64,000 bases of DNA from Candidatus Atabeyarchaeum deiterrae (lineage in GTDB: Archaea > Asgardarchaeota > Atabeyarchaeia > Atabeyarchaeales > Atabeyarchaeaceae), in the NCBI GenBank assembly GCA_037310415.1, contig CP147780.1, positions 704,001-768,000 on the forward strand, written 5' to 3'. The notes below the pieces were generated by a model. It did not search any database and had not been told where the DNA came from. It was given only the letters and a program-made list of their open reading frames with translations. Positions 61,389 to 61,467 of the stretch are shown here, piece by piece. A program made the translations under genes and the position numbers. Within the stretch, counting starts at the first letter, position 1; each line of letters begins with the position of its first letter.

Positions 61389-61467
61389 GGTGCTGGGCGA
61401 TGAGCTATAGAGAGTCCTGATATCGAAGTCAAATGTGACGAAAAGGCATTAGGATGAGCCCAGCATC
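61389..61467 (+). ncRNA. double-guide box C/D sRNA; predicted targets in LSU rRNA H69-H71
   Basis: 10-bp terminal stem; C GCGATGA 61397-403; D' CTGA 61417-20; C' GTGACGA 61435-41; D ATGA 61454-57; 13- and 12-nt guides; TATA-like TTAAAATA at 61355. Confidence 0.75.

Follow-up and report, generated by a model that had tools for sequence, protein, structure and literature searches.

An Asgard archaeal genome very probably encodes a genuine, conserved and complete box C/D sRNA at positions 61389-61467 (+) of the window, by which is meant the whole 64,000-nucleotide stretch of DNA that was analysed (G000:C1:704001-768000 of the single-contig, 2.76-Mb genome G000). Taken overall, the element is best explained as an independently transcribed 79-nt box C/D sRNA, a reading of its sequence in which we place considerable confidence, and methylation of the nucleotide equivalent to E. 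coli A1938 is a well-supported predicted function of this RNA. Transcription, sRNP assembly and methylation are what we infer from observations of another kind, namely the anatomy of the element, its conservation and covariation, its complementarity to the genome's own rRNA and the presence of genes for fibrillarin and Nop5. The elements of the RNA and its surroundings are as follows.

32169-32852, minus strand: fibrillarin gene (PF01269, E = 1.2e-97), the C/D sRNP methyltransferase
32905-34140, minus strand: Nop5 gene (PF01798, E = 3.6e-72; PF21572, E = 1.2e-17), the C/D sRNP scaffold
61355-61362, plus strand: TATA box TTAAAATA, approximately 25-27 nt 5' of the terminal stem
61389-61398, plus strand: 5' strand of the terminal stem, GGUGCUGGGC, the canonical stem of the C/D kink-turn
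61397-61403, plus strand: box C, GCGAUGA, with GC at the closing end of the stem, GAU as a bulge of 3 nt and GA in the sheared pairs
61404-61416, plus strand: D' spacer and guide, GCUAUAGAGAGUC, 13 nt (12 if box C begins one nucleotide later)
61417-61420, plus strand: box D', CUGA
61421-61434, plus strand: D'-C' linker, 14 nt
61435-61441, plus strand: box C', GUGACGA
61442-61453, plus strand: D guide, AAAGGCAUUAGG, 12 nt, between C' and D
61454-61457, plus strand: box D, AUGA, non-canonical in being without the 5' C of canonical CUGA
61458-61467, plus strand: 3' strand of the terminal stem, GCCCAGCAUC
61473-61475, plus strand: short T run (CTTTG) directly 3' of the stem

Every element named in a preliminary description of this DNA was found, that is, the complete C-D'-C'-D layout, the 10-bp terminal stem and the TATA-like box, with the correction that the D box reads AUGA and not CUGA. 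The terminal kink-turn consists of GCGAUGA and AUGA bounded by the 10-bp stem, which includes one G-U pair, and it departs from consensus at the first nucleotide of the D box. The internal boxes, CUGA and GUGACGA, stand with spacers of 13 (or 12) nt and 12 nt, and the element folds with a z-score of -4.45 relative to shuffled sequences. From the usual archaeal spacing between TATA box and start, transcription would begin at approximately 61383-61388, and (A/T)TTAAAATA occurs at an equal distance upstream in the related genomes G002, G037, G028 and G001. The T run after the stem, which reads TTTT in G002 and TTT in G001, is a possible archaeal terminator. The 14-nt linker is long for an archaeal sRNA.

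Several other interpretations of the same letters were rejected. A splice-site stem of the bulge-helix-bulge type was ruled out, since the 10-bp stem is perfect and without bulges; the reverse complement has no box C/D layout that would suggest a minus-strand RNA; and a downstream GUGACGA...CUGA at approximately 61477-61492 was not counted as part of the RNA, its spacer being 5 nt and the motif missing from the homologues. A search of the whole window against Rfam at the gathering threshold returned no match, and a covariance scan of 61330-61680 at E <= 10 returned for the sRNA only a noise match to TtnuCD31, a Tetrahymena snoRNA (E = 8.8).

The D guide, in our judgement, very likely directs 2'-O-methylation of A2073 of the genome's own 23S rRNA, equivalent to E. 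coli A1938 and yeast A2281, as the following alignment suggests. The 23S gene lies at G000:C1:462549-465663, and its helix 69-71 region reads GGGAGUAACUAUAACUCUCUUAAGGUAGCCAAAUGCCUUG. The preliminary description had proposed that the guides be aligned to the genome's own 23S, and complementarity was present for both, over 7 bp for the D' guide and at 10 of 11 positions for the D guide, which pairs with CCAAAUGCCUU (G000:C1:464617-464627). The nucleotide at N+5 is A2073 (G000:C1:464621), the third A of CCAAAU, so that the assignment to A1938 and yeast A2281 made in the preliminary description held in the real rRNA, with one mismatch. Moreover, the D guide has the approximately 8-12 bp of pairing to a stable RNA and the target at N+5 that are asked of a guide. 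The single mismatch is an A·A at guide position 3, opposite A1936; positions 4-11 form an unbroken run of eight pairs around the targeted adenosine. Intersubunit bridge B2a (helix 69) is right beside this target, which also adjoins the position of yeast m5C2278. The yeast numbering was checked against the published Am2256, Ψ2258, Ψ2260, Ψ2264, Ψ2266, m5C2278, Am2280/2281, Gm2288 and the A2252-U2264 pair; in the yeast 25S sequence as we presume it to read, these positions match the letters only if the third A is A2281.

On 16S and 23S combined, 7 of 300 shuffled D guides equalled the pairing at 10 of 11 positions, and the perfect form of the guide carried by other Asgard families (11 of 11) was equalled by none of 300 shuffles. 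The genome holds no perfect complement of the D guide and 54 one-mismatch sites, among which the 23S site is the only one within the rRNA operon; none falls in the 24 tRNAs found by aragorn (only 24 were found).

Full-length copies were sought by BLAST in 40 related genomes, and full-length homologues were found in six further genomes of two families, f1 (the family of G000) and f18, with an upstream TATA box in five of the six. The BLAST copies were those of G002 and G001 in f1 and of G037 and G028 in f18, the f18 copies being 84% identical. The linker sequence is kept in f1 and f18. BLAST also returned, from two further families, f14 and f7, short canonical sRNAs that have a linker of 3-5 nt and have C', the guide and the AUGA D box in common with the window RNA; their guide, AAAGGCAUUUGG/A, is fully complementary to 23S.

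The preliminary description had also suggested that the same guide be looked for in other Asgard genomes. A pattern composed of a C/C' box, the AAGGCAUU guide and xxGA was run over 400 Asgard genomes with the reversed pattern as control, and it matched in 51 genomes, compared with five for the control. Reading of the flanks left approximately 42 true C/D contexts in 13 families and nine chance matches within genes; the common guide in these contexts is AAGGCAUU(U/A)G. The guide stands before box D in f1, f18, f7 and f14, and after box C, before D', in f28, f9, f23, f31, f16, f15, f22 and f11. The sRNAs of f28 and f9 (L059, L061, L067, L068-L074) are 110-125 nt long, with a D'-C' hairpin of 30-40 nt and with the two guides swapped relative to the window RNA.

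In an alignment of 11 sequences, neither the GA of any box nor AAGGCAUU varies. Box C keeps AUGA throughout, with G, A or C at the first bulge position; box D' is CUGA or CCGA, the latter in four f18 members; box C' keeps UGACGA; and box D is AUGA, ACGA or GUGA. Across lineages, the D-type box is AUGA, ACGA, GUGA, UGGA, GGGA, AAGA or CGGA nearly everywhere, and CUGA was seen only in G157 and G012. Furthermore, five of the ten pairs of the terminal stem have changed on both sides, a covariation score that none of 500 shuffles reached. There is also covariation between the first nucleotide of the D box and the second one that follows box C (U-A in five and C-G in four of the 11), as would be expected for position 4 of stem II of a kink-turn. 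Literature searches for a published list of Asgard C/D sRNAs or a map of Asgard rRNA modifications brought up nothing specific.

The A at guide position 3 is fixed in all seven f1 and f18 members, and the 23S of G000, G001 and G037 reads CCAAAUGCC in every case; the mismatch is therefore a conserved one. It has a bearing on an unlikely reading of the f1 and f18 RNAs, namely that they are folding chaperones or decaying guides that still pair with the helix 69-71 region and no longer methylate, the loss being due to the mismatch at position 3, to the departure of the D box from the canonical sequence and to an intramolecular helix in which the guide is sequestered. C/D sRNAs have indeed been proposed to act as RNA chaperones (PMC7994747), and the mismatch has been fixed in all seven members while the 23S stayed unchanged. 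In the minimum-energy fold of G000 and G002, moreover, the D' box region pairs with the 3' half of the D guide in an alternative helix of 8 bp (sequence positions 26-33 with 60-67, GUCCUGAU with AUUAGGAU), in which the A of guide position 3 pairs with a U of the D' box and two compensatory changes separate G000 from G002; such a helix would compete with sRNP assembly. However, the box and guide sequences by themselves entail most of its pairs, and it was discarded as a conserved structure because neither G001 nor any of the four f18 members, whose D' box is CCGA, is predicted to fold in this way. The eight contiguous pairs that still flank the target also speak against a guide that has lost its function, and the GA that is invariant in all four boxes points to a working sRNP.

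Assembly of the sRNP would be expected to proceed as follows. L7Ae would bind the terminal C/D kink-turn, made of the GA·GA pairs of GAUGA and AUGA and closed by the 10-bp stem, and would also bind the internal C'/D' motif, after which a Nop5 dimer and two fibrillarins would complete the particle. The presence of fibrillarin and Nop5 genes in the window, as had been stated beforehand, was borne out by the matches to PF01269, PF01798 and PF21572. The D guide would then pair with its target at the helix 70/71 junction, where the nucleotide facing guide position 5, the genome's own A2073, would receive its 2'-O-methyl group from fibrillarin. For the D' guide we tentatively favour, at somewhat less than even confidence, an accessory or bridging pairing that would support the D duplex, which is short and mismatched, and would also aid the local folding of the rRNA.

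Positions 2-8 of the D' guide form seven contiguous base pairs with ACUCUCU of the 23S (E. coli 1919-1925) on the 3' strand of helix 69, and the N+5 nucleotide of this guide is the genome's own C2057, equivalent to E. coli C1922 and yeast C2265, 16 nt upstream of the D target. The preliminary description had assigned this guide to C1922 with an 8-bp duplex on the assumption that the 23S reads GACUCUCU. The register stood; the assumed sequence did not, since the genome's own 23S reads AACUCUCU, with A and not G at 1918. Position 1 of the guide, a C, faces this A unpaired, and the duplex is only 7 bp for that reason. The duplex extends to 8 bp in G002, G037 and G028; against the 23S of G037 itself, its position 1 is a G·U pair. 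A loss of 2 nt has left the D' guide of G001 degenerate, and the D guide of that genome is intact. The 23S of G001 (L062:1586-1634) carries an insertion of approximately 48 nt that separates ...CUCUCUUAA from AGGUAGCCAAAUGCC; it lies between helices 69 and 70, exactly between the two sRNA target sites; the insertion forms a stable hairpin and could be an expansion segment or a small intron.

By itself, the D' match is not above chance, being equalled somewhere on 16S and 23S by 249 of 300 shuffles, and when the shuffles were restricted to the proximity of helices 69-71, 4-15% reached it. The one perfect 12-mer complement of this guide in the genome, GACUCUCUAUAG at G000:C1:1145301-1145312 (-), lies outside the window approximately 20 nt after the ATG at the start of an ORF; approximately 0.33 such sites are expected by chance, and the site was therefore taken as a chance match and rejected as a target.

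Partner guides from different lineages, 28 in number, were aligned to the 83-nt helix 69-71 region. The best pairing lay within helix 69 for 24 of the 28, and 19 of these paired over at least 7 bp. The matches are weak singly, with 0.6-15% of shuffles in the 83-nt region reaching them. The registers by family were the following.

f14, f31 and f16: N+5 at G1906, 9-10 bp
f9: N+5 at A1916, 8-9 bp
f15: N+5 at U1917, 8 bp
f28: N+5 at U1921 (4 of 6 read), 6-7 bp
f1 and f18: N+5 at C1922, 7-8 bp
f7: N+5 at U1923 (4 of 5 read), 7-8 bp

Collectively, these alignments show that the predicted A1938 guide has been kept together with a putative helix-69 guide, and that the exact helix-69 nucleotide has not been kept. 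They bear on the possibility, which we regard as doubtful, that the RNA is a true double guide whose D' guide directs 2'-O-methylation of C1922 in addition to Am at A1938. Several observations would suit a second methylation: positions 2-8, including position 5, are paired behind a spacer of 12-13 nt; the duplex reaches 8 bp in three relatives; f1, f18 and f7 all retain AGAGAG, which f28 has as its D guide; and helix 69 is a predicted archaeal methylation hotspot (PMC4644070). Nevertheless, the duplex on the genome's own 23S is short and rich in alternation of A·U and G·C, most shuffles find its equal somewhere in the rRNA, the D' guide of G001 has decayed beside an intact D guide, and N+5 moves with lineage (1916, 1917, 1921, 1922, 1923), with no single target nucleotide conserved. 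A D' register that differs between lineages fits a pairing role better than it fits a single conserved methylation site, and the sliding of the partner agrees no less well with accessory or bridging pairing than with a second conserved methylation.

The sRNA lies 310 nt upstream of pyrG (CTP synthase), on the same strand, and this order and orientation recur in f1, f7 (G008, G018) and f14 (G029). A second box C/D sRNA was found at 61553-61621 (+), between the first sRNA and pyrG, with the sequence GUGAUGA-AACGACGGUCUG... AUGAUGA-GGCGUACAGCAA-CUGA; in Rfam it weakly resembles Pyrococcus sR3, sR18 and sR19 (E = 0.07-0.5). The combination of its C box and ACGACGGUCU guide occurs in the same interval on the same strand in G002, and on the opposite strand in G008, G018 and G029. 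The gene order of sRNA, second sRNA and pyrG (61389-63483) is kept in f1, f7 and f14, and such synteny stands out against reports that describe crenarchaeal C/D sRNA genes as mobile and fast-evolving. In S. acidocaldarius, the sRNA Sac-sR126 follows Sac-sR125 at a distance of 57 nt (coordinates from the supplement of PMC4644070).

The closeness to pyrG, on the same strand and with synteny held in three families, is also what would recommend the very improbable alternative that the element is a structured DNA or leader element, for example a regulatory hairpin of pyrG, and that the box and guide matches are coincidental. The RNA, however, has its own conserved TATA box, invariant GA in all four boxes with 12-nt spacing, and a guide identical to those of sRNAs detected by RNA-seq in Sulfolobus and Ignicoccus, and the same RNA does not lie beside pyrG in G037, G028 or G001.

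Other features of the neighbourhood were observed in passing. At 61654-61693, some 85 nt before pyrG begins, the arms GAUGUCUAC...GUAGUAGACAUC of a nearly perfect inverted repeat enclose the palindrome AACUCUUUAAAAGAGU, which includes a TATA-like TTTAAAA; the repeat is kept in G002 and may be a promoter or operator of pyrG. Matches to mir-4659 in Rfam were produced by this repeat and were dismissed as spurious. Just 3' of the second sRNA, at 61643-61650, GCCGUCGU is complementary to the D' guide of that RNA (ACGACGG) and may be a flanking or processing stem; G002 has GCCGUCGUAG. The upstream ORF at 59414-61129 (+), of 571 aa, appears internally repetitive, with out-of-frame ORFs approximately every 156 nt between 60084 and 61010, and in Pfam it gave only weak repeat-like matches (DUF5122 beta-propeller, NrdI-like fragment).

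The closest known relatives were found in Crenarchaeota. Sac-sR125 of Sulfolobus acidocaldarius and IHOsR109 of Ignicoccus hospitalis are C/D sRNAs detected by RNA-seq (Dennis et al. 2015, PMC4644070, supplementary file 1), and they were assigned to 23S A2204 and G2172 in the alignment numbering of those authors (PMC4644070). In that alignment, A2178 is E. coli A1912 (PMC4644070), and A2204 and G2172 are therefore E. coli A1938 and G1906. Sac-sR125 carries GUGAUGA-AAAGGCAUUUGU-CAGA, and IHOsR109 carries GGUGAGGA-GAAGGCAUUUGU-CUGA (PMC4644070). The window RNA resembles both in having a guide of the form (A/G)AAGGCAUUUG directly after C' and before the terminal D box, in the same register and aimed at A1938, and in aiming its other guide at helix 69. 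Its D guide is one substitution away from the AAGGCAUUUG of the crenarchaeal RNAs, the substitution being the mismatching A at position 3, and the D box of Sac-sR125 is likewise non-canonical, CAGA where the window RNA has AUGA. Moreover, the f14 version in the Asgard genome G029 shares with Sac-sR125 an identical string of 25 nt from the D' box through the guide. The differences are that the window RNA has a 10-bp terminal stem, a linker of 14 nt rather than approximately 3 nt, and a length of 79 nt rather than approximately 57 nt, and that its partner guide addresses the 3' strand of helix 69 (C1922) and not the 5' strand (G1906); the G1906 target is kept in the Asgard families f14, f31 and f16 (9-10 bp).

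On this comparison, the window RNA is the putative Asgard counterpart of a guide already described in Crenarchaeota, and on these data common descent cannot be separated from convergence of the two on a conserved target. Archaeal dual guides usually address sites less than 100 nt apart (PMC7994747), and helices 68-71 are archaeal methylation hotspots (PMC7994747; helices 68, 69 and 71 as predicted in PMC4644070). Like the double guides of the Pyrococcus sR and Pyrobaculum families, the window RNA has the C-D'-C'-D order, 12-nt spacers and two guides predicted to pair with one rRNA within 100 nt, in a genome that encodes fibrillarin and Nop5; unlike them, it combines an extended, perfectly paired terminal stem with a long linker and a D box of non-canonical sequence.

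The comparison with eukaryotes concerns snR13 of yeast and vertebrate U15 (SNORD15), whose target is the same rRNA nucleotide that is predicted here, 25S Am2281. Yeast snR13 directs 25S Am2280 and Am2281 with a D' box, UCGA, that is without the 5' C, and the missing C matters for the choice of nucleotide (PMC5389607). The guide duplex of snR13 is among the shortest and depends on extra pairing beside the target (PMC3116282). The window RNA likewise has a short guide duplex with a putative second pairing element nearby, and in both cases the box adjacent to the guide is without the 5' C (UCGA in snR13; AUGA, ACGA or GUGA in the window RNA and its homologues). In contrast, the guide of snR13 lies upstream of D' and that of the window RNA upstream of D, and snR13 modifies two adjacent adenosines and is a Pol II transcript of a different length. 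The earlier suggestion of an archaeal counterpart of a eukaryotic snoRNA thus holds for the target site and not for family membership, since no Rfam C/D family, SNORD15/snR13 included, gave this RNA a covariance-model match in the cmscan of 61330-61680 at E <= 10 beyond the noise match to TtnuCD31. The likeness to snR13/SNORD15 is functional; homology cannot be claimed, because the rRNA segment that determines what the guide must read is universally conserved. It is conceivable, though in our estimate rather unlikely, that the double guide for A1938 and helix 69 represents one ancient lineage that was inherited from the shared ancestor of TACK and Asgard archaea, was kept beside pyrG in Asgard and led to eukaryotic snR13/SNORD15, and that an ancestral box without the 5' C sets which adenosine, A1937 or A1938, is methylated.

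In conclusion, the understanding of how C/D sRNPs work is left unchanged by this RNA, which is well conserved and otherwise unexceptional within a known class. With it, a methylation guide directed at a target common to Crenarchaeota and eukaryotes gains an Asgard representative, and the RNA offers a ready test case for the annotation of C/D sRNAs in Asgard genomes. Furthermore, the Asgard families present a case in which one guide has stayed the same, its partner has shifted to different positions on helix 69 and the guides have exchanged places, and they supply a natural series of non-canonical D boxes that is useful for learning how the box sequence sets the nucleotide to be methylated.
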